A DNA stretch of 64,000 nucleotides from Escherichia coli (lineage in GTDB: Bacteria > Pseudomonadota > Gammaproteobacteria > Enterobacterales > Enterobacteriaceae): NCBI RefSeq assembly GCF_013122565.1, contig NZ_CP053258.1; one strand, given 5' to 3'. Below are positions 4,387 to 60,980 of this stretch, one piece after another (positions within the stretch are counted from its first letter, which is position 1; each line of letters begins with the position of its first letter). The notes beneath the pieces were generated by a model. The model made no database searches and was not told where the DNA came from. It saw nothing but the letters and a program-made list of their open reading frames with translations. The translations under genes were made by a program, and so were the position numbers.

Positions 4387-5799
4387 ATGTCACTCAGTCG
4401 GCGTCAGTTCATTCAGGCATCGGGGATTGCACTTTGTGCAGGCGCTGTTCCCCTGAAGGCCAGCGCAGCCGGGCAACAGCAACCGCTACCCGTTCCGCCG
4501 CTGCTTGAATCTCGCCGTGGGCAACCGCTGTTTATGACTGTACAACGCGCGCACTGGTCATTTACGCCAGGGACACGCGCGTCGGTCTGGGGAATCAATG
4601 GTCGTTACCTGGGGCCGACTATCCGCGTCTGGAAGGGCGACGATGTTAAGCTTATTTACAGCAACCGGCTGACAGAAAATGTCTCAATGACGGTGGCCGG
4701 GCTACAGGTACCTGGCCCGCTGATGGGCGGGCCGGCACGGATGATGTCGCCAAACGCTGACTGGGCACCCGTACTGCCTATTCGCCAGAACGCAGCTACT
4801 CTGTGGTATCACGCCAATACTCCCAACCGCACGGCTCAGCAGGTCTATAACGGCCTTGCCGGAATGTGGCTGGTGGAAGATGAAGTCAGCAAGTCGCTGC
4901 CTATCCCCAACCATTATGGTGTGGATGATTTTCCGGTCATTATCCAGGATAAACGGCTGGATAACTTTGGTACGCCAGAATACAACGAACCGGGAAGCGG
5001 CGGCTTTGTTGGTGATACACTACTGGTTAACGGTGTGCAAAGCCCGTACGTTGAAGTCTCGCGTGGCTGGGTGCGCTTGCGACTGCTGAACGCGTCGAAC
5101 TCTCGTCGCTATCAACTACAGATGAGCGATGGTCGCCCGTTACATGTGATTTCTGGCGATCAGGGATTCCTGCCTGCTCCTGTATCGGTGAAGCAACTTT
5201 CGCTGGCACCGGGCGAGCGCCGCGAGATTCTGGTGGATATGAGCAACGGTGATGAAGTGTCGATCACCTGTGGCGAAGCGGCGAGCATTGTTGATCGTAT
5301 TCGTGGCTTCTTTGAGCCATCCAGCATTCTGGTTTCTACCCTGGTGCTAACGCTGCGCCCAACCGGCCTTCTGCCGCTGGTCACAGACAGTCTTCCTATG
5401 CGCTTGCTGCCAACTGAAATCATGGCCGGTTCGCCGATTCGCAGTCGCGATATCAGTCTGGGTGATGACCCGGGTATTAATGGACAACTGTGGGACGTCA
5501 ACCGTATTGATGTCACCGCGCAGCAAGGAACGTGGGAACGCTGGACGGTACGCGCGGACGAGCCGCAAGCGTTCCATATTGAAGGTGTGATGTTCCAGAT
5601 CCGTAACGTGAATGGCGCGATGCCGTTCCCGGAAGACAGAGGCTGGAAAGATACCGTTTGGGTTGACGGACAAGTGGAGCTGCTTGTTTATTTCGGTCAG
5701 CCTTCCTGGGCGCACTTCCCGTTCTACTTCAACAGTCAGACGCTGGAAATGGCGGACCGTGGCTCGATAGGGCAACTGTTAGTCAATCCGGTACCGTAA
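4387..5799 (+). CDS. ftsP: Cell division protein FtsP (SufI), multicopper oxidase fold, Tat signal
   Basis: 470 aa; twin-arginine signal MSLSRRQFIQASGIALCAGA. Confidence 0.93.
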   Translation: MSLSRRQFIQASGIALCAGAVPLKASAAGQQQPLPVPPLLESRRGQPLFMTVQRAHWSFTPGTRASVWGINGRYLGPTIRVWKGDDVKLIYSNRLTENVSMTVAGLQVPGPLMGGPARMMSPNADWAPVLPIRQNAATLWYHANTPNRTAQQVYNGLAGMWLVEDEVSKSLPIPNHYGVDDFPVIIQDKRLDNFGTPEYNEPGSGGFVGDTLLVNGVQSPYVEVSRGWVRLRLLNASNSRRYQLQMSDGRPLHVISGDQGFLPAPVSVKQLSLAPGERREILVDMSNGDEVSITCGEAASIVDRIRGFFEPSSILVSTLVLTLRPTGLLPLVTDSLPMRLLPTEIMAGSPIRSRDISLGDDPGINGQLWDVNRIDVTAQQGTWERWTVRADEPQAFHIEGVMFQIRNVNGAMPFPEDRGWKDTVWVDGQVELLVYFGQPSWAHFPFYFNSQTLEMADRGSIGQLLVNPVP

Positions 5800-5849
5800 T
5801 GGACCAATTCATCGCTCCACTGAGTGGTGGGGCGATACAAGGATGAAAC

Positions 5850-7274
5850 ATGGATGGCATGGGATGGATGATTATTTTGGTACTTCCCTTTCTTTGGATG
5901 GGGTATGGACTGGCGTTGTTAATCATAACGGGGTGCGCTTTTGAATCTAAGGGGATTCGTCGCGTTCTGCTATGGGGTGTTGCGCCTCAGTTTATTATTC
6001 TTTGTATTGCGACCTTATTGCTTTACTGGACTAACTCTCGGTTAATTTATGTTTTTGTCTTTTTTCAGCCAGTTTTATGTATCACCACGGCAATTTTTTT
6101 ATTTGCTGGTAAAAAAACACAATATTCCAGATTGCTGTTTACTCTGTCTCATGTGATTTTTCTCGCTGGCGTTTTATATCAGGGGCATAGGGAAAATCTG
6201 CAATACATAATTAATAACGACTGGAAGGAATATAAAATAACGCGTTTATTTGAGCAAGTGCAGGACAATGGGGCGCATGCGCTGAATAACGATGTAACTT
6301 GTTCAGAATTAATGCAACTACTCACACTGGCAGCGGAACGTAATGACGTCAAAGAAGAGACGTTACGTACTCTTATTGCAAAGAAAGTATCGCCATTTCT
6401 GACAATGTCAGATAACTGTACGGGTGAGAATTCAGTAGAGACTTATTCTGTATATACTACGCCTTTTATGGCAGCTATTCAAAATCATAATATACATTCT
6501 GTCCGTTTTTTTAGTCAATTGCTTATGGGAAACTCATCAAAAGCAAAAAATAATCGTGACATTGTGCGCCGGGCAAACCCATTGATCGAAGTGTATAAAT
6601 ATAGTCATGGTTCTAAAAAACAACGTAAGTCAGGGTTAGAAATAAGTAAGCAATTAATGGCCATTATGCCAGAGCTATTAACAGATGCCGTCTGGCGTGC
6701 CGTGCTCAATGTATATGATGCCGATGCAGCACGATGGTTCTGGCGTAAGCAACCACCAGAAAATCGGTTGTATCGCTTAAAGGCTATGGCATTAATACCA
6801 CAAACGGATGCGCTATTGGCGGAGATTCGACAAACTCCAGAGGTACTGAATATCTCGTCTGAGGGAGACCTGAATGAAGAGGAGTTTCTCCATTTCTTAA
6901 TTTATGGAGGAGATACCGCTGTAATACATGCACTGGTTGAAAAAGGAATAGTTAACTGGCAGCACCTTATGAACATTGAGGGGTTTGATAAGGACCCCTT
7001 AATTTGGGCTATTTCAAAACTGGGAGAAAATGACAATGACCGGGAGGTTTTGACATTAATTATTCATGATATTAATGCGCAAAATGCACTGCCGGAGGAT
7101 CGCATAGCCAAATATTTAACGCGGACGGGATCAATGGGCGAGATTTTTTTAAAGGCGGGCGTACATTGTGATAAGTTATATGCGGCAATTGAGTCCGACA
7201 AAAAGCGAAATAATGGTATGTATAGTCAAAACGCCAGGGAAGAAGTGGATCGAGTATGTACGCCCGCAAAATAG
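5850..7274 (+). CDS. Hypothetical membrane protein, N-terminal ~4 TM helices plus ankyrin-repeat-like C-terminal region (paralogue A)
   Basis: 474 aa ORF; AAGGA RBS ~10 nt upstream; hydrophobic N-terminus; ankyrin-like motifs (TPFMAAIQNHNIHSVRFF, GDTAVIHALVEKG); AT-rich codon usage. Confidence 0.6.
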   Translation: MDGMGWMIILVLPFLWMGYGLALLIITGCAFESKGIRRVLLWGVAPQFIILCIATLLLYWTNSRLIYVFVFFQPVLCITTAIFLFAGKKTQYSRLLFTLSHVIFLAGVLYQGHRENLQYIINNDWKEYKITRLFEQVQDNGAHALNNDVTCSELMQLLTLAAERNDVKEETLRTLIAKKVSPFLTMSDNCTGENSVETYSVYTTPFMAAIQNHNIHSVRFFSQLLMGNSSKAKNNRDIVRRANPLIEVYKYSHGSKKQRKSGLEISKQLMAIMPELLTDAVWRAVLNVYDADAARWFWRKQPPENRLYRLKAMALIPQTDALLAEIRQTPEVLNISSEGDLNEEEFLHFLIYGGDTAVIHALVEKGIVNWQHLMNIEGFDKDPLIWAISKLGENDNDREVLTLIIHDINAQNALPEDRIAKYLTRTGSMGEIFLKAGVHCDKLYAAIESDKKRNNGMYSQNAREEVDRVCTPAK

Positions 7275-7319
7275 GTGCAGTTTGGGGCGGTTAAGGAATA
7301 AAAAATAAAGGACTAAGCC

Positions 7320-8729
7320 ATGCGTAATGATGAATTTTTTCACCATTTTACTTTGACACTGTTTATGTTGGGTGGCTATCTACTGACTCTGTTCATCGTT
7401 ATCGTCCTTTCCTTTTTTAGCCCATTATGCCGAAAAATGGTCTTCCATGGCGCATTGCCGCAATTGATGATGGCAATAACGGTGTCGCTCGGTTTATATT
7501 ATCTGGAACGATACTCTTTTGCGGTATGGGCCTTACTGGATTCTTTTTGGATATTATTCCCCTGCCTGTTATTGATCATAGTGATAAATAAATGGTTAAA
7601 GCGTTCCCTTGTATGGATGAGTGCTTGTCATATTATGTGCTTGCTGTTGTTACTCTGGCAGGTGCAGCCCACGTTATTTAAAATCAGCTTTTATCACCAA
7701 CAATTAAGTCACCTGGCTCAGGCAGAGCAGGAAAATTTCCGCACACTGGATGCGATTCACGATACGCAACGTCTGGAAGCGATGTTACTGGTAGCGTTGA
7801 AATCCCCGGAAAATCAAACCTCTGAAAATGCCTTTCGCTATCTGTCAGGGCGAATCTCACCATTTGCTATACCTTCCATTGGCGATGAACAGTATTCTAC
7901 CCGCACTTTTTTTACGATTGCGTTGGAACATTACAACGCCCGCGCCATCCGCGCGTTTAGCCGCTTTCTGCAAGGAAATTCCTCAAAAGCGCAGGAATAT
8001 CGTGCGATTGTTCATCAAAAAAATCCACTGCAGCAGATGTACCGGGGAATAAGTTTGCCAATTCGTTTTAGTGAAGAAGAGATCGCCCGTCACATTATTG
8101 CCGCTCGCGAGATAAGCCTCACCTTACTGCCCCTGATGCCAGAATTATTAAACGAAGAGGCGTATGCAAATGTCATTGATGCTTATGACAGCGCAACGCT
8201 GAAGGCTTTTTGGCAGTTCCAGCTGCCGCCTACGCCGGTTTTGCGCCTGGAAGCGATGTCGGTAATTCCCATGACAGCGGCACTGGTTCAACAGGTGAGA
8301 GAGTCACCAAAACGGCTTGAACTGGAAGATAAAAGTGGCAGGACAGTACTAACTTACATCGTGCGCTTTGGAAATATTGCCGCAGTACAGGCACTGATTG
8401 ACGCTAATCTGATCGACTGGCAACGGCTTCGCCAATCGACAGAAAGGTCAACACCATTATTACTGGCGACCTGGCGACAAAAATACGACGATGATCATGT
8501 AATCTTCCCATTGATTTTAAAGGACATGCTGGCAAAAAATGCGCCACCCTCAGCAGAGGAAATAATGAACTGCCTTAAGGATGGTATGACCGCAGATGAT
8601 TTTTTCTCTGCCGGAATGAGCAACACGCAATTCTGTTCTGCGATTGAACAAAGCCTCCAGGCGAAAACGTCAGTATTACCGGCGAATCGATTACGCCATC
8701 TGCAATCCTCGCTGTGTGCAAAGCTGTAA
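7320..8729 (+). CDS. Hypothetical membrane protein, paralogue of 5850..7274 (paralogue B)
   Basis: 469 aa; AAGGA RBS; shares motifs with upstream ORF (FSRFLQGNSSKAQ vs FSQLLMGNSSKAK; MPELLNEEAYANVIDAYD vs MPELLTDAVWRAVLNVYD). Confidence 0.6.
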   Translation: MRNDEFFHHFTLTLFMLGGYLLTLFIVIVLSFFSPLCRKMVFHGALPQLMMAITVSLGLYYLERYSFAVWALLDSFWILFPCLLLIIVINKWLKRSLVWMSACHIMCLLLLLWQVQPTLFKISFYHQQLSHLAQAEQENFRTLDAIHDTQRLEAMLLVALKSPENQTSENAFRYLSGRISPFAIPSIGDEQYSTRTFFTIALEHYNARAIRAFSRFLQGNSSKAQEYRAIVHQKNPLQQMYRGISLPIRFSEEEIARHIIAAREISLTLLPLMPELLNEEAYANVIDAYDSATLKAFWQFQLPPTPVLRLEAMSVIPMTAALVQQVRESPKRLELEDKSGRTVLTYIVRFGNIAAVQALIDANLIDWQRLRQSTERSTPLLLATWRQKYDDDHVIFPLILKDMLAKNAPPSAEEIMNCLKDGMTADDFFSAGMSNTQFCSAIEQSLQAKTSVLPANRLRHLQSSLCAKL

Positions 8730-8844
8730 CCAACCGGAAGTTAAGTCATCCGCTGAAAACATCGCATTAACTTTTCGATTTCTCTTTCGTTCCGGCTTAT
8801 AATCCCCGGCCTTTGATTATTTTTTTATCATTTCTGGAAGCAAA

Positions 8845-11064
8845 ATGAGCTCTATCTCCCTGATCCAACCGGATCGCGACCTGTTCTCCTGGCCGCAGTA
8901 CTGGGCCGCCTGTTTTGGACCGGCACCGTTTTTGCCGATGTCTCGTGAAGAGATGGATCAACTTGGCTGGGATAGCTGCGACATCATTTTGGTTACTGGC
9001 GACGCGTATGTCGATCACCCAAGCTTCGGGATGGCGATTTGCGGTCGTATGCTGGAAGCGCAGGGCTTTCGCGTCGGGATCATCGCCCAGCCGGACTGGA
9101 GCAGCAAAGACGACTTTATGCGTCTGGGTAAACCGAATCTGTTTTTCGGCGTTACTGCTGGCAACATGGATTCGATGATCAACCGCTATACCGCCGATCG
9201 CCGTTTACGTCATGACGATGCCTACACGCCGGATAACGTCGCGGGTAAGCGACCGGATCGCGCCACACTGGTTTATACCCAGCGTTGTAAAGAGGCGTGG
9301 AAAGATGTGCCGGTGATCCTCGGCGGTATTGAGGCTAGTCTGCGCCGTACCGCGCATTATGATTACTGGTCCGATACCGTGCGCCGTTCCGTGCTGGTGG
9401 ATTCCAAAGCCGACATGCTGATGTTCGGTAACGGTGAGCGTCCGTTGGTGGAGGTGGCGCACCGTCTGGCGATGGGCGAGCCGATTAGTGAAATCCGCGA
9501 TGTGCGTAATACTGCGATTATCGTAAAAGAGGCGTTGCCAGGCTGGAGCGGTGTGGATTCCACCCGTCTCGATACCCCAGGGAAAATCGACCCGATCCCG
9601 CATCCGTATGGCGAAGATCTGCCGTGCGCGGATAACAAACCTGTTGCGCCGAAAAAGCAGGAAGCGAAAGCCGTAACCGTGCAGCCGCCGCGCCCGAAAC
9701 CGTGGGAAAAAACCTACGTATTGCTGCCTTCTTTCGAGAAAGTGAAGGGCGATAAAGTGCTGTACGCCCATGCTTCGCGCATTCTGCACCACGAAACCAA
9801 CCCTGGCTGCGCCCGCGCATTGATGCAAAAACACGGCGACCGCTATGTGTGGATCAACCCGCCTGCTATCCCGCTTTCTACCGAAGAGATGGACAGCGTT
9901 TTTGCGCTGCCGTACAAGCGCGTGCCGCATCCGGCCTATGGCAATGCCCGTATTCCGGCTTACGAAATGATCCGTTTCTCGGTCAACATTATGCGCGGCT
10001 GCTTTGGCGGCTGCTCTTTCTGTTCTATCACTGAGCACGAAGGGCGCATTATTCAGAGCCGTTCGGAAGATTCGATCATTAATGAGATTGAAGCGATCCG
10101 CGACACCGTTCCAGGTTTTACGGGCGTAATTTCCGATCTCGGTGGGCCAACTGCCAACATGTATATGTTGCGCTGCAAATCGCCACGCGCTGAGCAAACC
10201 TGCCGCCGTTTGTCCTGCGTTTACCCGGATATTTGTCCGCATATGGACACGAACCACGAACCAACGATCAACCTCTATCGCCGTGCGCGTGATCTGAAAG
10301 GCATTAAAAAGATCCTGATTGCCTCTGGTGTGCGTTATGACATCGCCGTAGAAGATCCGCGCTATATCAAAGAACTGGCGACCCATCACGTCGGCGGTTA
10401 TCTGAAGATTGCCCCGGAACATACCGAAGAAGGGCCGTTATCGAAGATGATGAAGCCGGGCATGGGCAGCTATGACCGCTTTAAAGAGCTGTTCGATACC
10501 TACTCGAAACAGGCAGGTAAAGAGCAGTATCTGATCCCCTATTTCATCTCCGCGCACCCGGGTACGCGTGATGAAGATATGGTGAATCTGGCGCTGTGGC
10601 TGAAAAAGCATCGTTTCCGTCTCGACCAGGTACAGAACTTCTACCCATCGCCGCTGGCTAACTCGACCACCATGTATTACACCGGGAAAAACCCGCTGGC
10701 GAAGATTGGTTATAAGAGTGAAGACGTCTTCGTACCGAAGGGCGACAAGCAGCGTCGTTTGCATAAAGCGTTGTTGCGTTACCACGATCCGGCAAACTGG
10801 CCGTTAATCCGCCAGGCGCTGGAAGCGATGGGCAAAAAGCATCTGATTGGCAGCCGTCGCGATTGCTTAGTGCCTGCGCCAACCATTGAAGAGATGCGTG
10901 AAGCTCGTCGCCAGAACCGCAATACCCGTCCGGCGTTGACGAAACATACGCCGATGGCGACCCAGCGTCAGACGCCTGCTACGGCAAAAAAAGCGTCGTC
11001 TACGCAATCTCGTCCGGTGAATGCTGGTGCGAAGAAACGCCCTAAAGCGGCGGTTGGACGTTAA
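8845..11064 (+). CDS. ygiQ: Radical SAM superfamily protein YgiQ
   Basis: 739 aa; CxxxCxxC-type motif ([13 protein letters not shown]); position next to ftsP. Confidence 0.9.
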
Positions 11065-11073
11065 ATTCGCTGT

Positions 11074-11099
11074 TCCCGGTAGCAGAATTGCTACCGGGG
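11074..11099. terminator. Hairpin downstream of ygiQ
   Basis: tcccggtagca-gaat-tgctaccggga inverted repeat between convergent genes. Confidence 0.4.
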
Positions 11100-11134
11100 A
11101 TATTACTTCAGAATCTATCTCATTAGGCATTTAT

Positions 11135-11491
11135 TTATATGCCGAAATGTATCATGTGTTTATTTTCTCTGATAGCTTTTTGTATTACTTCTGATAAAGA
11201 AAGAAGTAAAGGATCGTGCTGGAATTTTGTATCCGATACAACAATATGAAGAAACTGATTTAATGAATCTGGTGGGATAATGGTGACTCCGTAGCGAGCA
11301 AGCGCATAACCTGGACGATTTAAACTATGATAGAAGGTTTTTATTGTCTGAAGTTGTTCCCACCATTCATCAATATAAATGTCATCATCAATATAAACGC
11401 AATTATATTTTTCAGGTTCATAGTGACCATAATCTTTATCAGTATCAATTTCATCAATAATACCAAATTCGGTTTTAATCATAATGACCAT
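11135..11491 (-). CDS. Hypothetical small acidic protein
   Basis: 118 aa ORF in strongly AT-rich DNA; no recognisable domain; same strand and immediately downstream of the YqhG-like gene. Confidence 0.45.
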   Translation of the reverse strand: MVIMIKTEFGIIDEIDTDKDYGHYEPEKYNCVYIDDDIYIDEWWEQLQTIKTFYHSLNRPGYALARYGVTIIPPDSLNQFLHIVVSDTKFQHDPLLLSLSEVIQKAIRENKHMIHFGI

Positions 11492-11673
11492 GCTTTTTAA
11501 TTGTTATGCAGAAAAATGCCAGGAAAATGATTTAAATTGAATTTTCTGGGGTGATTTGTAATCTTGCTTGTCATATAGATGAGCCATCCAACGAGGTTGT
11601 GCAACATTTAATGAGGGAGACTGGACCAGAACAAGGCTGGGGATTAATATAGAAATGATTAACAATAGTGGCT

Positions 11674-12597
11674 TCATTTTGTCGTTGTTTCCATATTATT
11701 TTTAGCAGATTCCGCCTGTAATTTTTTGATTTCTTGTTCTCTGTGGCGTGCAAACTCTTTACGGGTCGTGACGCGTTCATACAAAGTAATATCGGTAATC
11801 CCCCCACTCCGCATGCCCAAATGACCTCGTATATCCATATCAAATGTTCCAGCTATCCGGACATAATCGCCATTTAGCTGACGAGCACGAGTTAAGGTCA
11901 CGACTGGGTTTGGGAAATCAATATCCAACCACACGCTATCACTTTGAACAAAATTTTCCCAGGATTCTTTATTTAAATATAAGGCGTTGCCTTCAAACTC
12001 AATATTGCCGACACCTTCGACAACCACCTTTTGCAAATGGTATTTTTCTGGCTGCGCAAGTAGTGCCGTCATTGATATCGAATGAGAAAAATGATCGCTT
12101 GAGGGTTCATTAATTACAGCTCTGCGTTTCATTCGCGTATCTTCACGTATTTCTGCCCGTAGACTGTTAGGCATTTCATTACCATCATCGATGTCTTCTA
12201 TTAGCCAGCGATGATTATCATTTTCACGAACCAGCATCAGCCCCAGTAACCGGTGGACATTGGTGCGATTTTGTTTGATAACCAACTGCAACAGTACATG
12301 CGTTCGGCCGCCATTTAGGTGTGTGCTTTGGATTATTTCTGCAGAAACGAAAGTATCATCAACACAGCGACACAAAAGATTATTATTCAGCCAGGGTGTC
12401 ATTTTGCCAGGAGTAGCGCTCATATTACTTCGCAAATCGAGACTGAATTCATCGGTTATTGGTATATCGCCATTACTGGTCAATGGTTGGTACAAACGTT
12501 CTATCGCTTCATTAATCGATTCTTTGCACAACACGTTTCCGCTGAAGCCACAGAACAGCAGAATAAAAAAACAGGTGTGCCAGCGTCGCATAATCAT
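11674..12597 (-). CDS. Secreted protein, distant YqhG (DUF3828-like) paralogue
   Basis: 307 aa; N-terminal signal peptide (FFILLFCGFSGNVLC); weak shared motifs with YqhG (CxC-D, RWLIEDI vs RWVIDDI). Confidence 0.55.
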   Translation of the reverse strand: MIMRRWHTCFFILLFCGFSGNVLCKESINEAIERLYQPLTSNGDIPITDEFSLDLRSNMSATPGKMTPWLNNNLLCRCVDDTFVSAEIIQSTHLNGGRTHVLLQLVIKQNRTNVHRLLGLMLVRENDNHRWLIEDIDDGNEMPNSLRAEIREDTRMKRRAVINEPSSDHFSHSISMTALLAQPEKYHLQKVVVEGVGNIEFEGNALYLNKESWENFVQSDSVWLDIDFPNPVVTLTRARQLNGDYVRIAGTFDMDIRGHLGMRSGGITDITLYERVTTRKEFARHREQEIKKLQAESAKNNMETTTK

Positions 12598-12636
12598 GCC
12601 CTTATGTTTGGCTTTTTCTTAGCAAACAGCCTCTAA

Positions 12637-12669
12637 CCCGGCAACTGACATGCTGCCGGGGATTTTTTT
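12637..12669 (+). terminator. Intrinsic-terminator-like hairpin plus T-run
   Basis: cccggca...tgccggg stem followed by TTTTTTT on the + strand. Confidence 0.45.
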
Positions 12670-12670
12670 A

Positions 12671-12928
12671 TCATTCTGCGTACATACGCATGCAGCGCAG
12701 GCAATCAAAATAGTCCTGTGCATCAAGACGCGTATTGGCTCTGTTAGCTTCGGATTTGGCAGCATAGATTTGTGGGCGTAGTGCTTTCATATCCTGCTCA
12801 AGCCGGGCGATTTTGGCATTTAATGTTTGTACATTGCTCGCCAGTTGATTGACCTTTTGCTCATTGACGCAGCCACTGAGCAAGCAGGTTGCCAGAACAA
12901 CAGCTCCCACGGTGAAAATCGTTTTCAT
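12671..12928 (-). CDS. yqhH: Lpp-like lipoprotein YqhH
   Basis: 85 aa; lipobox LLSGC; coiled-coil Lpp-like sequence. Confidence 0.9.
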
Positions 12929-23658: not shown

Positions 23659-23811
23659 GACCTCTCCTTTCCACCATTCAATTTCGAAACAATGTTTCTA
23701 GTTTAGCGATTCATCAGTGCGTATCCCGTAGTCTGGCTCACAGAGTGACGAAAAACTGGGCAAAAACACGTGCTTATGCTTTGCTTAAAAAAACACCAAG
23801 TGAGGAGTGCA

Positions 23812-24702
23812 ATGATGCCGCGTTTAACCGCCAAAGATTTCCCACAAGAGTTGCTGGATTACTACGACTATTACGCTCACGGGAAAATCTCGAAACGTGA
23901 GTTCCTCAACCTTGCGGCGAAGTATGCGGTAGGCGGGATGACGGCATTAGCGTTGTTTGATTTGCTCAAGCCAAATTATGCGCTGGCGACTCAGGTAGAG
24001 TTTACCGACCCGGAAATTGTTGCTGAGTACATCACGTATCCTTCGCCAAATGGTCACGGCGAGGTGCGGGGTTATCTGGTGAAGCCCGCAAAGATGAGCG
24101 GCAAAACGCCAGCCGTAGTGGTGGTGCATGAGAATCGTGGACTGAATCCGTATATCGAAGATGTGGCACGGCGAGTGGCGAAGGCGGGGTATATCGCCCT
24201 GGCACCTGACGGCTTAAGTTCCGTTGGAGGTTATCCGGGAAATGATGATAAAGGTCGTGAGCTGCAACAGCAGGTTGATCCAACCAAACTGATGAATGAT
24301 TTCTTTGCCGCAATTGAGTTTATGCAACGCTATCCGCAAGCGACAGGCAAAGTGGGTATTACTGGATTTTGCTATGGCGGTGGCGTATCGAACGCGGCGG
24401 CTGTCGCGTATCCGGAACTGGCCTGCGCGGTGCCGTTTTATGGTCGACAGGCACCCACCGCCGATGTGGCGAAGATTGAAGCGCCTTTACTGCTCCACTA
24501 CGCGGAACTGGACACCCGAATCAACGAGGGCTGGCCCGCTTACGAGGCGGCGTTGAAAGCCAATAATAAGGTTTATGAGGCGTATATCTATCCGGGGGTT
24601 AATCACGGATTCCATAATGATTCCACGCCCCGTTATGACAAATCTGCCGCCGATCTTGCCTGGCAAAGAACGCAGAAATGGTTCGATAAATATCTCTCCT
24701 GA
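23812..24702 (+). CDS. yghX: Dienelactone hydrolase family protein (intact YghX)
   Basis: GAGGAG RBS before ATG at 23812; ~296 aa uninterrupted; alpha/beta hydrolase motifs; the ORF track extends to 23770 via GTG. Confidence 0.8.
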   Translation: MMPRLTAKDFPQELLDYYDYYAHGKISKREFLNLAAKYAVGGMTALALFDLLKPNYALATQVEFTDPEIVAEYITYPSPNGHGEVRGYLVKPAKMSGKTPAVVVVHENRGLNPYIEDVARRVAKAGYIALAPDGLSSVGGYPGNDDKGRELQQQVDPTKLMNDFFAAIEFMQRYPQATGKVGITGFCYGGGVSNAAAVAYPELACAVPFYGRQAPTADVAKIEAPLLLHYAELDTRINEGWPAYEAALKANNKVYEAYIYPGVNHGFHNDSTPRYDKSAADLAWQRTQKWFDKYLS

Positions 24703-24820
24703 TAGGTTTATCTCTTACGGGATTACGTCTTAAACAAGCATGAAAAAATAGCGTGCGCAAAAGTCGTTCTTTGCCTAAAATATCGCTATATATAACAATA
24801 TATAGCGAATGAGGTGAACG

Positions 24821-25108
24821 ATGAATAACCATTTTGGTAAAGGCTTAATGGCGGGATTAAAAGCAACGCATGCCGACAGTGCGGTTAATGTGACTAAATA
24901 CTGTGCCGATTATAAACGCGGTTTTGTATTAGGCTACTCACACCGGATGTACGAAAAGACCGGAGATCGCCAGCTTAGCGCCTGGGAAGCGGGTATTCTG
25001 ACGCGCCGCTATGGACTGGATAAAGAGATGGTAATGGATTTCTTTCGTGAGAATAATTCCTGTTCTACGTTGCGCTTTTTTATGGCCGGTTATCGCCTCG
25101 AAAATTGA
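24821..25108 (+). CDS. yghW: DUF2623 protein YghW
   Basis: 95 aa; [35 protein letters not shown]. Confidence 0.85.
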
Positions 25109-25296
25109 TCAAACATACGTATTATCTTGCTTTAATTAATTACACTAATGCTTCTTCCCTTCGTTTTAGCGCCCCGCCGCAGTATCATGATATCGATAAC
25201 CATAATAAATGTGTGGTAAATGGCGCATCGATCGCATTATTGATTTTGCGATTGAGGCAAAATATATGCCAGGTCTTCGCAACGGAATAACAATAA

Positions 25297-26415
25297 ATGA
25301 CTGGAGATAACACCCTCATCCATTCTCACGGCATTAACCGTCGTGATTTCATGAAGCTTTGTGCAGCATTAGCCGCCACCATGGGGTTAAGTAGCAAAGC
25401 CGCTGCAGAGATGGCCGAATCGGTTACTAACCCGCAGCGTCCGCCAGTTATCTGGATTGGCGCGCAGGAGTGCACCGGTTGTACGGAATCTCTGCTTCGT
25501 GCAACGCATCCAACGGTAGAAAACCTCGTGCTGGAGACTATCTCTCTGGAATATCACGAAGTGCTTTCCGCCGCCTTCGGTCATCAGGTCGAAGAGAACA
25601 AACATAACGCTCTTGAGAAGTACAAAGGGCAGTATGTGTTAGTGGTGGATGGTTCCATCCCATTAAAAGATAATGGGATTTATTGCATGGTCGCCGGTGA
25701 GCCGATTGTGGATCACATCCGCAAAGCGGCGGAAGGCGCAGCAGCGATTATCGCTATCGGTTCCTGCTCTGCGTGGGGCGGTGTTGCCGCAGCTGGAGTT
25801 AACCCGACTGGCGCAGTCAGCCTGCAAGAAGTTCTGCCAGGCAAAACCGTTATCAACATTCCGGGCTGCCCGCCGAACCCGCACAACTTCCTCGCGACCG
25901 TTGCGCACATCATCACTTACGGCAAGCCGCCGAAACTGGATGACAAAAACCGTCCGACCTTCGCCTATGGCCGTCTGATTCACGAACACTGCGAACGTCG
26001 CCCGCACTTCGATGCTGGTCGTTTTGCCAAAGAGTTCGGTGATGAAGGCCACCGCGAAGGCTGGTGCCTGTACCACCTCGGCTGTAAAGGGCCAGAAACT
26101 TACGGCAACTGCTCAACGCTGCAATTCTGCGATGTTGGCGGTGTGTGGCCGGTGGCGATTGGTCACCCGTGCTATGGCTGTAACGAAGAAGGTATCGGCT
26201 TCCATAAAGGCATCCATCAGCTTGCCAACGTCGAAAATCAGACTCCGCGTTCACAGAAACCGGACGTTAATGCTAAAGAAGGCGGCAACGTCTCGGCAGG
26301 CGCTATTGGTTTGCTCGGCGGTGTGGTTGGGCTGGTTGCCGGTGTCAGCGTGATGGCGGTGCGTGAACTGGGTCGTCAGCAAAAGAAAGATAACGCTGAC
26401 TCACGGGGAGAATAA
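25297..26415 (+). CDS. hybO: Hydrogenase 2 small subunit (Tat signal)
   Basis: 372 aa; RRDFMK twin-arginine motif; [NiFe] hydrogenase small-subunit Cys clusters. Confidence 0.95.
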
Positions 26416-26417
26416 CC

Positions 26418-27404
26418 GTGAACAGACGTAATTTTATTAAAGCAGCCTCCTGCGGGGCATTGCTGACGGGCGCGCTGCCGTCTGTCAGTCATGCGGCTGC
26501 TGAAAACCGCCCGCCAATTCCGGGATCGCTGGGGATGTTGTACGACTCGACCTTGTGCGTTGGCTGCCAGGCTTGCGTCACCAAGTGTCAGGATATCAAT
26601 TTCCCTGAACGTAACCCGCAAGGGGAACAGACCTGGTCGAACAACGACAAACTGTCGCCGTATACCAATAACATCATTCAGGTGTGGACCAGCGGCACAG
26701 GGGTCAACAAAGACCAGGAGGAGAACGGCTACGCGTACATTAAGAAACAGTGTATGCACTGCGTCGATCCGAACTGTGTCTCTGTGTGCCCGGTCTCTGC
26801 ACTGAAAAAAGATCCGAAAACCGGCATTGTCCATTACGACAAAGATGTGTGCACCGGCTGCCGTTACTGCATGGTCGCCTGCCCATACAATGTGCCGAAG
26901 TACGACTACAACAACCCGTTTGGTGCGCTGCATAAGTGCGAGCTGTGCAACCAGAAAGGTGTGGAACGTCTCGATAAAGGCGGTCTGCCTGGCTGCGTAG
27001 AAGTGTGCCCGGCGGGCGCGGTGATTTTTGGTACGCGTGAAGAGCTGATGGCGGAGGCGAAAAAACGTCTGGCGCTGAAGCCTGGCAGCGAATACCACTA
27101 TCCGCGTCAGACGCTGAACTCTGGTGACACTTACCTGCATACGGTGCCGAAATATTATCCGCATCTGTACGGCGAGAAAGAGGGCGGCGGTACTCAGGTT
27201 CTGGTACTGACGGGTGTGCCTTATGAAAATCTCGACCTGCCGAAACTGGACGATCTTTCTACCGGTGCGCGTTCCGAAAATATTCAACACACCCTGTATA
27301 AAGGCATGATGCTACCACTGGCTGTGCTGGCGGGCTTAACCGTGCTGGTTCGTCGCAACACCAAAAACGACCATCACGACGGAGGAGACGATCATGAGTC
27401 ATGA
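26418..27404 (+). CDS. hybA: Hydrogenase 2 ferredoxin-type 4Fe-4S subunit
   Basis: 328 aa; GTG start; multiple CxxCxxCxxxCP motifs; Tat signal. Confidence 0.93.
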
Positions 27405-28572
27405 TCCACAACCGCTGGGCGGCAAAATCATCAGTAAACCGGTCATGATTTTTGGACCGTTAATCGTCATCTGTATGCTCCTGATTGTGAAGCGTCTGGT
27501 GTTCGGTCTGGGCTCTGTCTCTGACCTGAACGGCGGCTTCCCGTGGGGCGTGTGGATCGCGTTTGACCTGCTGATTGGCACCGGCTTTGCCTGTGGCGGC
27601 TGGGCGCTGGCGTGGGCGGTATACGTCTTTAACCGTGGGCAATACCATCCGCTGGTGCGTCCGGCGCTGTTGGCGAGTCTGTTCGGTTACTCACTGGGTG
27701 GCTTGTCGATCACTATCGACGTGGGTCGCTACTGGAACCTGCCGTACTTCTACATTCCGGGTCACTTCAACGTGAACTCGGTACTGTTCGAGACGGCGGT
27801 CTGTATGACCATCTACATCGGCGTGATGGCTCTGGAGTTTGCTCCGGCACTGTTTGAACGTCTGGGCTGGAAGGTGTCGCTACAGCGTCTGAACAAGGTG
27901 ATGTTCTTCATCATCGCGCTCGGCGCGCTGTTGCCGACCATGCACCAGTCTTCAATGGGGTCACTGATGATCTCGGCGGGCTACAAGGTGCATCCGCTGT
28001 GGCAGAGCTATGAAATGTTGCCGCTGTTCTCGCTGCTGACGGCGTTCATCATGGGCTTCTCGATTGTCATCTTTGAAGGTTCGCTGGTGCAGGCGGGTCT
28101 GCGTGGCAACGGTCCGGATGAAAAGAGCCTGTTCGTCAAGCTGACCAACACCATCAGTGTGTTGCTGGCAATTTTCATCGTGCTGCGCTTTGGCGAGCTT
28201 ATCTATCGCGACAAGCTGTCGTTAGCGTTTGCCGGTGACTTCTACTCCGTGATGTTCTGGATTGAAGTCCTGCTGATGCTCTTCCCGCTGGTCGTTCTGC
28301 GTGTGGCGAAGCTGCGTAATGATTCCCGCATGCTGTTCCTGTCAGCACTGAGCGCACTGTTAGGTTGTGCAACCTGGCGTCTGACCTATTCGCTGGTGGC
28401 ATTCAACCCGGGCGGCGGTTACGCCTACTTCCCGACCTGGGAAGAACTGTTGATTTCTATTGGTTTTGTGGCTATTGAGATTTGCGCTTACATCGTACTC
28501 ATTCGTCTACTGCCGATACTTCCTCCTTTAAAACAAAACGATCATAATCGTCATGAGGCGAGCAAAGCATGA
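27394..28572 (+). CDS. hybB: Hydrogenase 2 integral membrane cytochrome b-type subunit
   Basis: 392 aa; polytopic membrane protein; operon position. Confidence 0.93.
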
Positions 28573-30272
28573 GCCAGAGAATTACTATTGATCCGGTAAC
28601 CCGTATTGAGGGGCATTTACGCATCGATTGCGAAATCGAAAATGGCGTCGTTTCGAAAGCATGGGCTTCCGGTACCATGTGGCGCGGCATGGAAGAGATC
28701 GTGAAAAACCGCGATCCGCGCGATGCATGGATGATTGTGCAACGTATCTGTGGCGTATGTACTACCACTCACGCGCTGTCTTCCGTTCGTGCGGCAGAAA
28801 GTGCGCTGAATATCGACGTTCCGGTTAACGCGCAATACATCCGTAACATCATTCTGGCTGCGCACACCACGCATGACCATATCGTTCATTTCTATCAGCT
28901 TTCGGCGCTGGACTGGGTGGACATCACTTCTGCACTGCAAGCTGATCCAGCCAAAGCCTCCGAAATGCTGAAAGGTGTTTCGACCTGGCATCTGAACAGT
29001 CCGGAAGAGTTCACCAAAGTTCAGAACAAGATCAAAGATCTGGTTGCCAGCGGTCAGTTGGGTATTTTCGCCAATGGCTACTGGGGTCACCCGGCGATGA
29101 AACTGCCGCCGGAAGTGAACCTGATTGCGGTAGCGCACTACCTGCAAGCGCTGGAGTGCCAGCGTGACGCTAACCGCGTCGTGGCGCTGCTGGGCGGTAA
29201 AACGCCGCACATTCAGAACCTGGCGGTAGGTGGGGTCGCTAACCCGATCAACCTCGACGGTCTGGGCGTGCTGAACCTTGAGCGCCTGATGTACATCAAG
29301 TCTTTCATCGACAAGCTGAGCGACTTTGTTGAGCAGGTTTATAAGGTTGATACCGCCGTTATCGCCGCTTTCTACCCGGAATGGCTGACGCGCGGTAAAG
29401 GTGCAGTGAACTACCTGAGCGTGCCGGAGTTTCCAACCGACAGCAAAAACGGCAGCTTCCTGTTCCCGGGCGGCTACATTGAGAATGCGGATCTGTCCTC
29501 GTATCGTCCGATCACTTCTCATTCCGATGAATACCTGATTAAAGGCATTCAGGAGAGCGCGAAGCACTCCTGGTATAAAGACGAAGCGCCGCAGGCTCCG
29601 TGGGAAGGCACCACCATTCCGGCTTATGATGGTTGGTCTGACGACGGTAAATACTCCTGGGTGAAATCACCGACTTTCTACGGCAAAACGGTAGAAGTGG
29701 GTCCGCTGGCTAACATGCTGGTGAAACTGGCGGCAGGACGTGAGTCTACCCAGAACAAACTGAATGAAATCGTTGCGATTTATCAGAAACTGACTGGCAA
29801 CACGCTGGAAGTGTCACAGCTGCACTCCACGCTGGGCCGTATTATTGGTCGTACCGTTCACTGCTGCGAATTGCAGGATATCCTGCAAAATCAATACAGT
29901 GCACTGATCACCAATATCGGCAAAGGCGATCACACCACCTTCGTGAAACCGAACATTCCGGCAACGGGTGAGTTCAAAGGTGTTGGCTTCCTCGAAGCGC
30001 CGCGCGGTATGCTCTCTCACTGGATGGTGATCAAAGACGGTATCATCAGCAACTACCAGGCAGTTGTTCCATCAACCTGGAACTCTGGCCCGCGTAACTT
30101 CAATGATGACGTCGGTCCTTACGAGCAGTCGCTGGTGGGTACACCGGTTGCTGATCCGAATAAACCGCTGGAAGTGGTGCGTACCATTCACTCCTTCGAC
30201 CCGTGCATGGCCTGTGCGGTACACGTAGTGGATGCCGACGGCAACGAAGTGGTTTCAGTGAAGGTTCTGTAA
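28569..30272 (+). CDS. hybC: Hydrogenase 2 large subunit ([NiFe] catalytic)
   Basis: 567 aa; N-terminal RICGVCTTTH and C-terminal DPCMACAVH nickel-binding motifs. Confidence 0.95.
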   Translation: MSQRITIDPVTRIEGHLRIDCEIENGVVSKAWASGTMWRGMEEIVKNRDPRDAWMIVQRICGVCTTTHALSSVRAAESALNIDVPVNAQYIRNIILAAHTTHDHIVHFYQLSALDWVDITSALQADPAKASEMLKGVSTWHLNSPEEFTKVQNKIKDLVASGQLGIFANGYWGHPAMKLPPEVNLIAVAHYLQALECQRDANRVVALLGGKTPHIQNLAVGGVANPINLDGLGVLNLERLMYIKSFIDKLSDFVEQVYKVDTAVIAAFYPEWLTRGKGAVNYLSVPEFPTDSKNGSFLFPGGYIENADLSSYRPITSHSDEYLIKGIQESAKHSWYKDEAPQAPWEGTTIPAYDGWSDDGKYSWVKSPTFYGKTVEVGPLANMLVKLAAGRESTQNKLNEIVAIYQKLTGNTLEVSQLHSTLGRIIGRTVHCCELQDILQNQYSALITNIGKGDHTTFVKPNIPATGEFKGVGFLEAPRGMLSHWMVIKDGIISNYQAVVPSTWNSGPRNFNDDVGPYEQSLVGTPVADPNKPLEVVRTIHSFDPCMACAVHVVDADGNEVVSVKVL

Positions 30273-30766
30273 TGCGTATTTTAGTCTTAGGGGTCGGCAA
30301 TATTTTGCTGACCGATGAAGCCATCGGCGTGCGGATTGTCGAAGCGTTAGAGCAACGATACATTCTGCCGGATTATGTTGAGATCCTCGATGGCGGCACG
30401 GCGGGAATGGAGCTGCTTGGCGACATGGCAAATCGCGATCATCTGATTATTGCGGATGCCATTGTGTCGAAGAAGAGCGCGCCGGGAACGATGATGATCC
30501 TGCGGGATGAAGAAGTTCCGGCGTTGTTTACCAACAAAATATCTCCGCATCAGCTTGGCCTGGCCGACGTATTGTCGGCCCTGCGCTTCACCGGTGAGTT
30601 TCCGAAAAAGCTGACCCTGGTCGGCGTGATCCCGGAATCGCTGGAGCCACACATCGGCTTAACACCGACGGTTGAAGCAATGATTGAACCTGCGCTTGAG
30701 CAGGTTCTGGCTGCGCTGCGCGAATCAGGCGTGGAAGCCATCCCACGGGAGGCGATTCATGACTGA
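30272..30766 (+). CDS. hybD: Hydrogenase 2 maturation endopeptidase
   Basis: 164 aa from ATG overlapping the hybC stop; MRILVLGVGNILLTDEAIGVRIVE. Confidence 0.92.
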   Translation: MRILVLGVGNILLTDEAIGVRIVEALEQRYILPDYVEILDGGTAGMELLGDMANRDHLIIADAIVSKKSAPGTMMILRDEEVPALFTNKISPHQLGLADVLSALRFTGEFPKKLTLVGVIPESLEPHIGLTPTVEAMIEPALEQVLAALRESGVEAIPREAIHD

Positions 30767-31247
30767 AGAGATAGCAGGTTTCCAGACCTCCCCGAAGGCG
30801 CAAGTACAGGCAGCGTTTGAAGAAATTGCCCGGCGTTCGATGCACGATCTCTCTTTTCTGCATCCTTCAATGCCGGTGTATGTTTCTGACTTTACGCTGT
30901 TTGAAGGTCAGTGGACGGGGTGTGTGATCACCCCGTGGATGCTGAGTGCGGTTATCTTCCCCGGCCCGGATCAACTCTGGCCGCTGCGCAAAGTGAGTGA
31001 AAAAATTGGTCTACAACTGCCGTATGGCACTATGACCTTTACCGTTGGCGAACTGGACGGTGTTTCGCAATATCTCTCCTGTTCGCTGATGTCGCCGCTT
31101 TCGCATAGCATGTCGATTGAAGAGGGCCAACGCCTGACGGATGACTGCGCACGAATGATCCTTTCGCTGCCAGTCACCAATCCGGATGTACCACACGCAG
31201 GGCGTCGCGCCCTGCTGTTTGGCCGCAGGAGTGGCGAAAATGCATGA
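30759..31247 (+). CDS. hybE: Hydrogenase 2 specific chaperone
   Basis: 162 aa from Met MTEEIAGFQTSPKAQ; 8-nt overlap with hybD. Confidence 0.88.
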   Translation: MTEEIAGFQTSPKAQVQAAFEEIARRSMHDLSFLHPSMPVYVSDFTLFEGQWTGCVITPWMLSAVIFPGPDQLWPLRKVSEKIGLQLPYGTMTFTVGELDGVSQYLSCSLMSPLSHSMSIEEGQRLTDDCARMILSLPVTNPDVPHAGRRALLFGRRSGENA

Positions 31248-31581
31248 GTTGTCGCTTTGCCAGAGCGCCCTTGAAATTATCCAACGGCAGGCGGAGCAGC
31301 ACGATGTTAAGCGCGTCACCGCCGTGTGGCTGGAAATTGGCGCGCTCTCCTGCGTTGAGGAGAGCGCCGTCCGTTTTAGTTTTGAAATTGTCTGCCACGG
31401 AACGGTGGCGCAAGGGTGCGATTTACATATCGTCTATAAACCCGCCCAGGCCTGGTGCTGGGATTGCAGCCAGGTGGTGGAGATTCATCAGCACGATGCG
31501 CAGTGTCCGATCTGTCATGGCGAGCGGTTGCGTGTCGATACCGGCGATTCGCTGATCGTCAAAAGTATTGAAGTTGAATAA
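31240..31581 (+). CDS. hybF: Hydrogenase nickel-incorporation protein (HypA paralogue)
   Basis: 113 aa from Met MHELSLCQSALEII; C-terminal CxxC...CxxC zinc motif. Confidence 0.9.
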   Translation: MHELSLCQSALEIIQRQAEQHDVKRVTAVWLEIGALSCVEESAVRFSFEIVCHGTVAQGCDLHIVYKPAQAWCWDCSQVVEIHQHDAQCPICHGERLRVDTGDSLIVKSIEVE

Positions 31582-31593
31582 CCGGAGTTAACA

Positions 31594-31842
31594 ATGTGTA
31601 TTGGCGTTCCAGGCCAGGTGCTGGCTGTCGGTGAAGATATTCACCAGCTTGCGCAGGTTGAAGTATGTGGTATCAAGCGCGACGTGAATATCGCCCTGAT
31701 TTGTGAAGGTAACCCTGCCGATCTGCTGGGCCAGTGGGTGCTGGTACACGTCGGATTTGCCATGAGCATCATCGACGAAGATGAAGCCAAAGCCACATTA
31801 GACGCGCTGCGCCAAATGGATTACGACATTACCAGCGCGTGA
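31594..31842 (+). CDS. hybG: Hydrogenase maturation factor (HypC paralogue)
   Basis: 82 aa; [10 protein letters not shown]-terminus with Cys2. Confidence 0.92.
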
Positions 31843-31854
31843 TGATTAGCTTTT

Positions 31855-31945
31855 GTAGGCCTGATAAGACGCGATAGCGTCGCATCAGGCATTGTGCTCG
31901 ATTGCCGGATGCGGCGTGAATGCCTTATCCGGCCTGGATGGCTTG
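31855..31945. repeat. REP palindromic elements
   Basis: gtaggcctgataagacgcgatagcgtcgcatcaggc ... gccggatgcggcgtgaatgccttatccggcc. Confidence 0.75.
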
Positions 31946-31964
31946 CTGCGACGAACACCAATCC

Positions 31965-32831
31965 TTACCCCTGACGCTTATCTTCCGTATTCGTCTCGAA
32001 ATCACTGGCGTCATGGCGCTCATGCAACTGCTCGTTCAACGGCCCGTTGGTGCGGTTAACAATACGCCCACGTTTCACCGCCGGACGTTCGCCCACTTCT
32101 TTTGCCCAGCGTTGCACATGCTTATAACTACCCGCATCAAGAAACTCTGCGGCATCATACACGCCGCCTAACACCACGTTGCCAAACCACGGCCAAATCG
32201 CCATATCCGCAATGGTGTACTCATCGCCTGCAACAAACTTATGCTGCGCCAGTTGCTTATCCAGCACGTCGAGAAGGCGCTTGGCTTCCATGGTAAAGCG
32301 ATTGATGGCGTACTCAATTTTCACCGGCGCGTAATGGTAAAAGTGACCAAAACCACCGCCGAGGAACGGTGCCGCGCCCTGTAACCAGAACAGCCAGTTC
32401 AGCGTTTCAGTCCGTTTTGCCAGATCCTGCGGCAGGAAGTAGCCAAATTTCTCCGCCAGATAAAGCAGAATCGATCCAGACTCAAACACGCGGATCGGCG
32501 GATTATGCGTATGATCGCGCAGCGCCGGGATCTTCGAGTTTGGGTTTACTTCGACAAAGCCGCTGGAGAATTGATCACCATCGCCTATGCGTATCAGCCA
32601 GGCATCGTACTCTGCGCCAGTAACGCCCAGCGCGAGCAGCTCCTCAAGCATAATCGTTACTTTCTGACCGTTCGGCGTTCCCAGCGAATAAAGTTGTAAT
32701 GGATGTTTGCCCACCGGCAGCGTTTTTTCATGCGTCGGACCAGAAACCGGGCGATTGATATTGGCGAACGCGCCGCCAGCGAATTTATCCCACGTCCAGA
32801 CTTTCGCGGGCTGATAAGTATTGTCTGTCAT
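31965..32831 (-). CDS. yghU: Glutathione S-transferase-like disulfide reductase YghU
   Basis: 288 aa from Met MTDNTYQPAKVWTWDK (the ORF-track start at 32879 is upstream). Confidence 0.9.
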   Translation of the reverse strand: MTDNTYQPAKVWTWDKFAGGAFANINRPVSGPTHEKTLPVGKHPLQLYSLGTPNGQKVTIMLEELLALGVTGAEYDAWLIRIGDGDQFSSGFVEVNPNSKIPALRDHTHNPPIRVFESGSILLYLAEKFGYFLPQDLAKRTETLNWLFWLQGAAPFLGGGFGHFYHYAPVKIEYAINRFTMEAKRLLDVLDKQLAQHKFVAGDEYTIADMAIWPWFGNVVLGGVYDAAEFLDAGSYKHVQRWAKEVGERPAVKRGRIVNRTNGPLNEQLHERHDASDFETNTEDKRQG

Positions 32832-59066: not shown

Positions 59067-59091
59067 TAGAATAGTTATGCCTGACGTTAAT

Positions 59092-59125
59092 ACAAACCCA
59101 GTCTATCAGACTGGGTTTGTTAGTA
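59092..59125 (+). terminator. Rho-independent terminator of glcA
   Basis: caaacccagtct-atc-agactgggtttg hairpin followed by a T-rich tract. Confidence 0.65.
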
Positions 59126-59478
59126 TTTCCGATATCAGACAGGGAAAATGCCTGGTCAGAAATGGGGCGTAATTCGGTTTTCTCAAAAAAGTAAAAAACG
59201 CCTTGTGGGCGGGGGATTATCTTACGACATGTAATTTGTTCCATACTTTTAAACTCCCCATTGTTATGAAGTAAAGGCGTTATCTTTTTATCCGTTCAAA
59301 CTTTAGCTCAAATTTGTAGCATGCAGATTCCGGTATTTTTCCTGATACCAGAAAAAAGTCACTGGAGGAAAGGTTGTGATAAAAATCACAAATTAAGTCA
59401 GGTTACTGGAGATAAAGTCTGCAACAGAGAATTATCGTAGTCTGTGTACCTCAACCAGTATTTTAAAGGCTCTGCTAC

Positions 59479-60975: not shown

Positions 60976-60980
60976 CAGGT

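Follow-up and report, generated by a model that had tools for sequence, protein, structure and literature searches.

The compact hydrogenase-2 (hyb) operon of Escherichia coli: gene overlaps, their conservation and their possible bearing on translation

The hyb locus

In the window, i.e. the whole stretch of 64,000 nucleotides (nt) of DNA analysed here, the hyb region (25297-31842, + strand) is an ordinary E. coli hydrogenase-2 (Hyd-2) operon, hybOABCDEFG, with the known compact layout, and the present study deals with the short overlaps between its consecutive genes and with what these may mean for translation. Gene coordinates (Table 1) were obtained by mapping onto the window the RefSeq annotation, made with the Prokaryotic Genome Annotation Pipeline (PGAP), of its best match, E. 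coli strain D8. The eight genes all lie on the + strand in intact frames, each with one terminal stop, and their co-directional order O-A-B-C-D-E-F-G and their lengths, equal to the curated ones, establish them as members of this operon. Their translations carry the expected hallmarks, namely the twin-arginine signals of HybO and HybA, the RIEGH and DPCxxCxxH motifs of HybC and the N-terminal MHE of HybF, and the chromosomal context is conserved, with yghW upstream and yghU and gss downstream. Regarding sequence identity, a 10-kb hyb query matches 5,425 of 5,426 complete E. coli genomes (identity up to 98.5%) and is covered over at least 80% of its length in 5,384 of the 5,426, the nucleotide identity to E. 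coli hyb being 98.1-98.5%. The HybC protein is 100% identical to that of E. albertii, yet nucleotide identity to this species is just 92.6%, as against 98.1-98.4% to E. coli. An origin from E. albertii, to which the protein match had pointed, was rejected on this basis.

Measured from stop to start, the seven junctions are O/A +2, A/B -11, B/C -4, C/D -1, D/E -8, E/F -8 and F/G +12 nt. The five overlaps of 11, 4, 1, 8 and 8 nt that had been described in an earlier, sequence-only reading of this DNA are all present where it had placed them and can be read directly from the sequence; the two gaps, i.e. 2 nt between hybO and hybA and 12 nt between hybF and hybG, were absent from that description. 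With junctions from -11 to +12 nt, each internal ribosome-binding site is either contained in the preceding coding sequence or no further than 12 nt from it.

In a consensus scan of positions 24700-32100, 3 promoter-like sites were found against 5.6 +/- 2.3 expected, and 10 terminator-like sites against 8.5 +/- 3.0 expected. This lack of any excess would fit a single operon, as which hyb has been described (PMC5902676), without proving it.

The strongest terminator-like match of the operon is a GC-rich hairpin within hybF (31342-31367, + strand; GCGCTCTCC-loop-GGAGAGCGC, minimum free energy -23.1 kcal/mol), which is followed by a T-rich tail. Many Enterobacterales retain it, and some of the synonymous changes in it are paired; its covariation is weak (paired cells, 76.1% vs. 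74.5% in shuffles) and, at two third-position pairs, about half of the sequences lack pairing. This hairpin probably arises secondarily from conservation of the ALSC-EESA peptide rather than as a conserved RNA element or attenuator.

Table 1. Genes, gene overlaps and Shine-Dalgarno (SD) sequences of the hyb operon, in positions of the window
Feature	Position	Strand	Description
hybO	25297..26415	+	hydrogenase-2 small subunit, 372 amino acids (aa), twin-arginine (Tat) signal RRDFMK; first gene of the operon
hybA	26418..27404	+	Fe-S subunit, 328 aa; GTG start, 2 nt past the hybO stop; Tat motif MNRRNFIK
hybB	27394..28572	+	membrane cytochrome-b-type subunit, 392 aa
hybC	28569..30272	+	large [NiFe] subunit, 567 aa
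hybD	30272..30766	+	HybC C-terminal maturation endopeptidase, 164 aa
hybE	30759..31247	+	Hyd-2-specific chaperone, 162 aa
hybF	31240..31581	+	HypA-type nickel metallochaperone, 113 aa; PGAP name hypA
hybG	31594..31842	+	HypC-type chaperone, 82 aa; 12 nt past the hybF stop
hybA/hybB overlap	27394..27404	+	11 nt, ATGAGTCATGA
hybB/hybC overlap	28569..28572	+	4 nt, ATGA
hybC/hybD overlap	30272..30272	+	1 nt, TAATG
hybD/hybE overlap	30759..30766	+	8 nt, ATGACTGA
hybE/hybF overlap	31240..31247	+	8 nt, ATGCATGA
hybO SD		+	weak; -3.5 kcal/mol
hybA SD	26405-26410	+	GGGGAG, inside hybO; -8.1 kcal/mol
hybB SD	27381-27387	+	GGAGGAG, inside hybA; -9.5 kcal/mol
hybC SD	28555-28558	+	GAGG; -5.6 kcal/mol
hybD SD	30261-30264	+	AAGG, weak; -3.5 kcal/mol
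hybE SD	30747-30752	+	GGGAGG; -10.3 kcal/mol
hybF SD	31227-31231	+	AGGAG; -7.0 kcal/mol
hybG SD	31584-31587	+	GGAG; -6.1 kcal/mol

Assignment of the start codons

The overlaps are only as good as the starts from which they are counted. As the sequence-only reading had remarked, the starts retained here differ from those of the open reading frame (ORF) track, and they do so in three genes, i.e. hybD, hybE and hybF. The longest ORFs begin at GTG 30203 for hybD (23 codons upstream of the annotated start), at TTG 30684 for hybE (25 codons upstream) and at ATG 31186 for hybF (18 codons upstream). In hybA, hybB, hybC and hybG, no start codon occurs between the upstream in-frame stop and the annotated start, which leaves no longer alternative; in hybA, the GTG start puts the motif MNRRNFIK right at the N-terminus. 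Among in-frame candidate starts, the best SD is that of the annotated start in every gene except hybD, the upstream alternatives scoring 0 to -3.5 kcal/mol; in hybD, a TTG located 11 codons downstream, with an SD of -5.9 kcal/mol, beats the annotated start (-3.5 kcal/mol).

Protein structures and comparative data converge on the annotated codons. The chains of both HybD structures in the Protein Data Bank (PDB 1CFZ and 2KML) start with MRILVLG, i.e. at the annotated hybD start, that of HybE (PDB 2KC5) starts with MTEE, i.e. at the annotated hybE start, and HypA structures start with MHE, at a position aligned with residue 19 of the long ORF of hybF. In many genera, in-frame stops 3-13 codons upstream of hybD exclude a longer ORF and, outside Escherichia, the curated ATG is conserved and the long-ORF starts are not. 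As for hybF, 22 of 40 loci offer no in-frame upstream start, and in all 40 HybF has MHE as its N-terminus when read from the aligned start (consensus MHE[LIVM]S[LM]C, rarely substituted). The starts at 30203, 30684 and 31186 were rejected on these grounds, as they have neither an SD nor conservation, other genera often have in-frame stops that block them, and they are contradicted by PDB chains beginning at the curated residues.

Gene identities, start codons and overlap lengths equal those curated for K-12 MG1655 (b2990-b2997) and those given by PGAP for E. coli D8. Curated starts differing from its own were what the sequence-only reading had named as evidence against it, and the comparison with the curated hyb annotation, once run, yielded none. 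That reading had also taken the overlaps themselves as support for its choice of starts, an argument which is partly circular, although the choices proved right by independent evidence, namely the SDs, the PDB chains and the upstream stops. On the practical side, a longest-ORF track misplaces 3 of the 8 hyb starts, which gene calling that takes overlaps into account places correctly.

Frequency of the overlaps and conservation across lineages

Overlapping junctions are more frequent in hyb (5 of 7) than among the other same-strand junctions of the window (6 of 31, the D8 annotation standing in for that of the window outside hyb; one-sided Fisher p = 0.014), and the binomial probability of at least 5 overlaps in 7 junctions ranges from 0.001 to 0.03, as calculated from published E. 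coli frequencies of ~15% and >30%. The hyb operon is denser than average and sits at the compact end of the range, yet it is not unusual among hydrogenase operons. Of note, a recent review gives -4, -1 and -8 as the three overlap spacings enriched in prokaryotes (PMC12548453), and such spacings have been tied to translational coupling (PMC12548453, PMC10666635).

Conservation was followed with a HybC scan limited to one genome per species, which gave 80 loci from Escherichia to Geobacteraceae and Nitrospirae. The eight genes were located by tblastn, stops by ORF extension, and starts were taken as the start codon at, or nearest to, the residue aligned to E. coli Met1, the calls that fall off the exact aligned Met1 being approximate. 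Within the close set, made up of Enterobacterales, Aeromonas and one Vibrio with HybC identities of 69% or more, the A/B overlap is always present with a length varying between -8, -11, -14 and -17. The B/C junction is at -4 in 39 loci and at -23 in 15 loci, the latter being real frame differences at the C-terminus of HybB. The C/D junction is at -1 in 52 of about 56 loci from Enterobacterales and Aeromonas, where the stop switches between TAA and TGA and the overlap is retained, the sequence GTNAAGGTNCTGT(A/G)ATG at this junction being highly conserved. At the D/E junction, 21 loci have -8, 5 have -11 and 4 have -4, with small gaps in Aeromonas; E/F is at -8 in 32 of 37 loci, and no locus has an F/G overlap. 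At HybC identities of ~60%, the order O-A-B-C-D is kept and spacers of +3 to +169 nt separate the genes at almost every B/C and C/D junction. As distant hyb-type operons have spacers, the overlaps are a conserved trait of one lineage rather than a requirement of this type of enzyme.

Regarding the B/C junction, Brenneria, Dickeya, Serratia, Yersinia and related loci present a peculiar arrangement, in which hybB stops 23 nt into hybC and the ATGA is kept with its TGA out of the hybB frame.

These data bear on a first explanation, by which the overlaps would be a mere by-product of genome compaction and stop-codon drift, each gene being translated independently from its own SD without functional coupling, and the overlaps persisting in Enterobacterales through shared ancestry and because changes there would hit two proteins at once. 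Overlap lengths do drift by multiples of 3 (-8/-11/-14/-17 for A/B, -4/-23 for B/C, and -4 to -17 or a small gap for D/E), distant relatives function with spacers, and short overlaps are common genome-wide (PMC12548453, PMC7538156). Such drift accounts poorly, however, for a C/D junction held at -1 despite the TAA/TGA switch and for an E/F junction at -8 in the large majority of loci, with HybC diverging down to ~71%, or for an operon denser in overlaps than the other same-strand junctions of the window. Taken together with the ribosome-binding sites considered below, this explanation is regarded as possible, though not probable.

Ribosome-binding sites and predicted accessibility

All downstream genes but hybD have a clear SD of their own (Table 1), a point that again suits independent translation. 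Across loci, the fraction with an SD of -5 kcal/mol or stronger is 1.00 for hybA, 1.00 for hybB, 0.98 for hybC, 0.74 for hybE, 0.62 for hybF and 1.00 for hybG, for a background of 0.14-0.23 at random positions inside hybC. For hybD, this fraction is 0.04, with a median of -3.9 kcal/mol over 56 loci, and the weak AAGG is supplied, across Enterobacterales and Aeromonas, by conserved Lys-Val codons of HybC. In the distant lineages whose hybD stands apart from hybC, the fraction reaches 0.53 and the median -5.7 kcal/mol. The lack of a good SD at hybD coincides exactly with its overlap with hybC, and a better SD goes with separation of the two genes, which argues against the overlaps being a simple by-product of compaction.

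Accessibility was estimated as the predicted opening energy of the region from -18 to +10, for an operon background of 14.5 +/- 3.5 kcal/mol. In the window, low opening energies are predicted for hybO (8.0 kcal/mol, i.e. the 3rd percentile of the background), hybC (9.2), hybD (6.5), hybE (9.8) and hybG (6.7), and values at the background level for hybA (15.9), hybB (14.7) and hybF (15.7). When 20 lineages were considered, hybO was predicted to be open in 88% of the 16 scored and hybC in 95% of the 20; hybA and hybB were consistently no more open than the coding background, hybB being above it in most lineages.

Proposed coordinated, non-equimolar translation

The reading favoured here, with somewhat better than even confidence, is that translation is coordinated along the polycistronic hyb mRNA without being equimolar, the genes relying on their own SDs and upstream ribosomes assisting at some of the starts. 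In this scheme, hybA, hybB, hybC, hybE, hybF and hybG would be initiated by new 30S subunits, each at its own SD. At hybA, hybB and possibly hybF, the start regions do not exceed average coding sequence in predicted openness, and ribosomes finishing the upstream gene would help there by unfolding the mRNA. Dependence on termination at the preceding stop would be likeliest for hybD, given its 1-nt overlap with hybC and its weak AAGG as sole SD. Relative outputs would then be set by the SD strength and the structure of each site and not by a 1:1 rule. Such coupling in hyb is plausible from the spacing of the genes and is consistent with the general literature. De novo initiation is supported by the finding that depletion of the ribosome recycling factor has no effect on coupling in E. 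coli (Saito et al., 2020, PMC7538156).

Several points weigh against this reading of coordinated translation. In a study of pairs at -8 to +10 nt, termination-reinitiation was argued to operate rather than unfolding (Huber et al., 2023, PMC10666635), in conflict with Saito et al. (PMC7538156), and the mechanism of coupling remains disputed in the field. Neither in the literature searched nor in the INRI-seq and TRAINSPOTTER supplements was any hyb coupling experiment, synthesis rate or start-site datum found: the sole hyb entry in these supplements is an unrelated hybC off-target, and a literature search for anaerobic ribosome profiling mentioning hybC returned nothing usable. This scarcity of hyb synthesis-rate and start-site data fits the low-level, anaerobic-only expression of the operon. 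Besides, accessibility values come from in-silico folds of 200-240 nt fragments, and an open ribosome-binding site at hybD, hybE and hybG, which had been considered as a conserved feature, was rejected because the pattern was not reproduced across the 20 lineages. Finally, the excess of HybC over HybO discussed below could stem from instability of HybO and not from unequal synthesis.

A more specific proposal concerns the hybC/hybD junction alone, which could be a conserved obligate coupling device, HybD being made only by ribosomes that have just finished the C-terminal tail of HybC, i.e. the very substrate of HybD. If true, the supply and the location of the protease would be tied in cis to each new large subunit, but we deem so strict a dependence rather improbable.

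The sequence-only reading had gone further in holding the overlaps consistent with stoichiometric co-translation of structural and maturation proteins, an idea that can be spelled out as termination-reinitiation at all overlapping junctions with products made in fixed, roughly 1:1 amounts. Some published observations lend themselves to this idea. In E. coli, gene pairs spaced by -8 to +10 nt, a class tied to termination-reinitiation, are 4.5-fold enriched for subunits of heteromeric complexes, from which selection for stoichiometry was proposed as a general principle (Huber et al., 2023, PMC10666635). Five hyb junctions (O/A, B/C, C/D, D/E and E/F) fall in this class, A/B (-11) and F/G (+12) being just outside; O/A, A/B, B/C and F/G are curated as complex partners in the same work, and the -1 hybC/hybD junction with its weak SD fits termination-reinitiation. 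An overlap alone, however, does not fix a 1:1 ratio. Strong independent SDs are present at 6 of the 7 internal hyb starts, re-initiation is less efficient at -8 overlaps than at shorter ones (PMC10666635), -11 lies outside the class, and the indifference of E. coli coupling to depletion of the recycling factor argues against re-initiation as the main mechanism (PMC7538156). The SD strengths range from -3.5 to -10.3 kcal/mol and predicted accessibility also differs strongly between genes. Three of the five overlaps (C/D, D/E and E/F) join a structural protein or chaperone to a partner which is not curated as complex-forming (PMC10666635), and the same type of enzyme is assembled in distant hyb-type operons with spacers of tens to >100 nt in place of overlaps.

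At the protein level, HybC was found in cytoplasmic excess and HybO limiting, and when hybO alone was provided on a plasmid, the chromosomal hybBCDEFG being kept, Hyd-2 rose to about ten-fold above native (Beaton et al., PMC5902676); these data point against a 1:1 ratio. The claim of stoichiometric co-translation is thus unsupported, given the excess of HybC with HybO limiting, the unequal SDs and accessibilities, and three overlaps joining pairs that are not curated as complex-forming. Re-initiation at every overlap with fixed output is accordingly judged quite unlikely, and coordinated, non-equimolar translation remains the preferred reading. In practice, expression of the next hyb gene can be altered by in-frame deletions, by tags or by refactoring aimed at hydrogenase overproduction, because the internal ribosome-binding sites lie within, or at most 12 nt from, the preceding gene.

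Neighbouring genes and accessory regions

Upstream of hyb, yghX (23770-24702, + strand) is an intact ORF in the window and is annotated as a YghX family hydrolase in D8, the K-12 MG1655 copy being a pseudogene. Further away, between ftsP and ygiQ, two adjacent ORFs of ~470 aa each (5850-7274 and 7320-8729, + strand) give sub-threshold ankyrin-repeat matches; this stretch is absent from D8 and the region is covered over at least 80% in 7 of the 5,426 complete E. coli genomes. Another ~1.6 kb (11066-12636) is missing from D8 at the same position and contains a 307-aa ORF on the - strand (11674-12597) without Pfam match.

At the other end, a type I Wadjet defence system occupies 59479-64000 (+ strand), with jetA (59479-60975), jetB (60966-61730) and jetC, which begins at 61727 and is cut by the window end (PADLOC E-values from 1e-116 to 0). 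Its genes overlap as well, by 10 nt for jetA/jetB and 4 nt for jetB/jetC. The system adjoins glcA, at the site of sslE in D8, and is covered over at least 80% in just 8 complete E. coli genomes. The closest complete E. coli genomes are ~98.5% identical over hyb and ~96.8% over 5600-12800, and for 58800-64000 the best identity among the top-listed full-length matches is 98.7%. The DNA appears to come from an E. coli-type lineage whose accessory content is rare and which has no near-identical counterpart among the complete genomes compared.

Comparison with known systems

Both the hyb overlaps and the idea of stoichiometry are already known and the feature as such is ordinary: the layout is in curated annotation, and the exact distances of the K-12 pairs (+2, -11, -4, -1, -8, -8 and +12) are in supplementary file 3 of Huber et al. 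(2023, PMC10666635), where O/A, A/B, B/C and F/G are marked as complex-forming and C/D, D/E and E/F are not. As a discovery, it thus carries little weight, and the only additions made here, modest ones, are that conservation of the overlaps is restricted to one lineage and that hybD is poor in SD at its 1-nt overlap with hybC.

Compared with K-12 MG1655 hybOABCDEFG (b2997-b2990), the genes of the window have equal lengths (1119, 987, 1179, 1704, 495, 489, 342 and 249 nt), an equal order and equal distances at the seven junctions, for ~1.9% nucleotide divergence and no structural difference. Strain D8 differs from the window by 8 amino acids over the eight Hyb proteins and, in all seven junction windows, by the sole position 31223. 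At the junctions from hybC to hybG (C/D, D/E, E/F and F/G), K-12 and D8 compared with the window show a synonymous C/T at 31223 and a C/T in the spacer at 31592, and are otherwise identical.

Other hydrogenase operons of E. coli are equally compact and likewise place structural genes ahead of a protease and chaperones. Overlaps occur at 4 of 5 junctions in hya (hydrogenase-1; -4, +18, -4, -4, -4), where all of them are of 4 nt, at 4 of 7 in hyc (hydrogenase-3; -4, +2, +17, +9, -1, -4, -8) and at 3 of 4 in hyp (+3, -10, -1, -4). Gene content and order differ, however, as hyb has hybA and hybB between the genes of the small and large subunits. Beyond E. coli, the hyb-type operons of Geobacteraceae, Nitrospirae and beta- and gammaproteobacterial metagenome-assembled genomes share the order O-A-B-C-D, with HybC at ~60% identity, but differ by B/C and C/D spacers and by a stronger SD belonging to hybD itself. 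As for the classical coupled pairs, such as trpB-trpA and rplK-rplA, which served as reporters in Saito et al. (2020), their genes belong, as in hyb, to one operon and either overlap briefly from stop to start or have a very short spacer between them; the dependence of downstream on upstream translation was measured for these pairs, with coupling factors from 1.7 to 7.0, whereas coupling in hyb is a plausible reading of the spacing of its genes.

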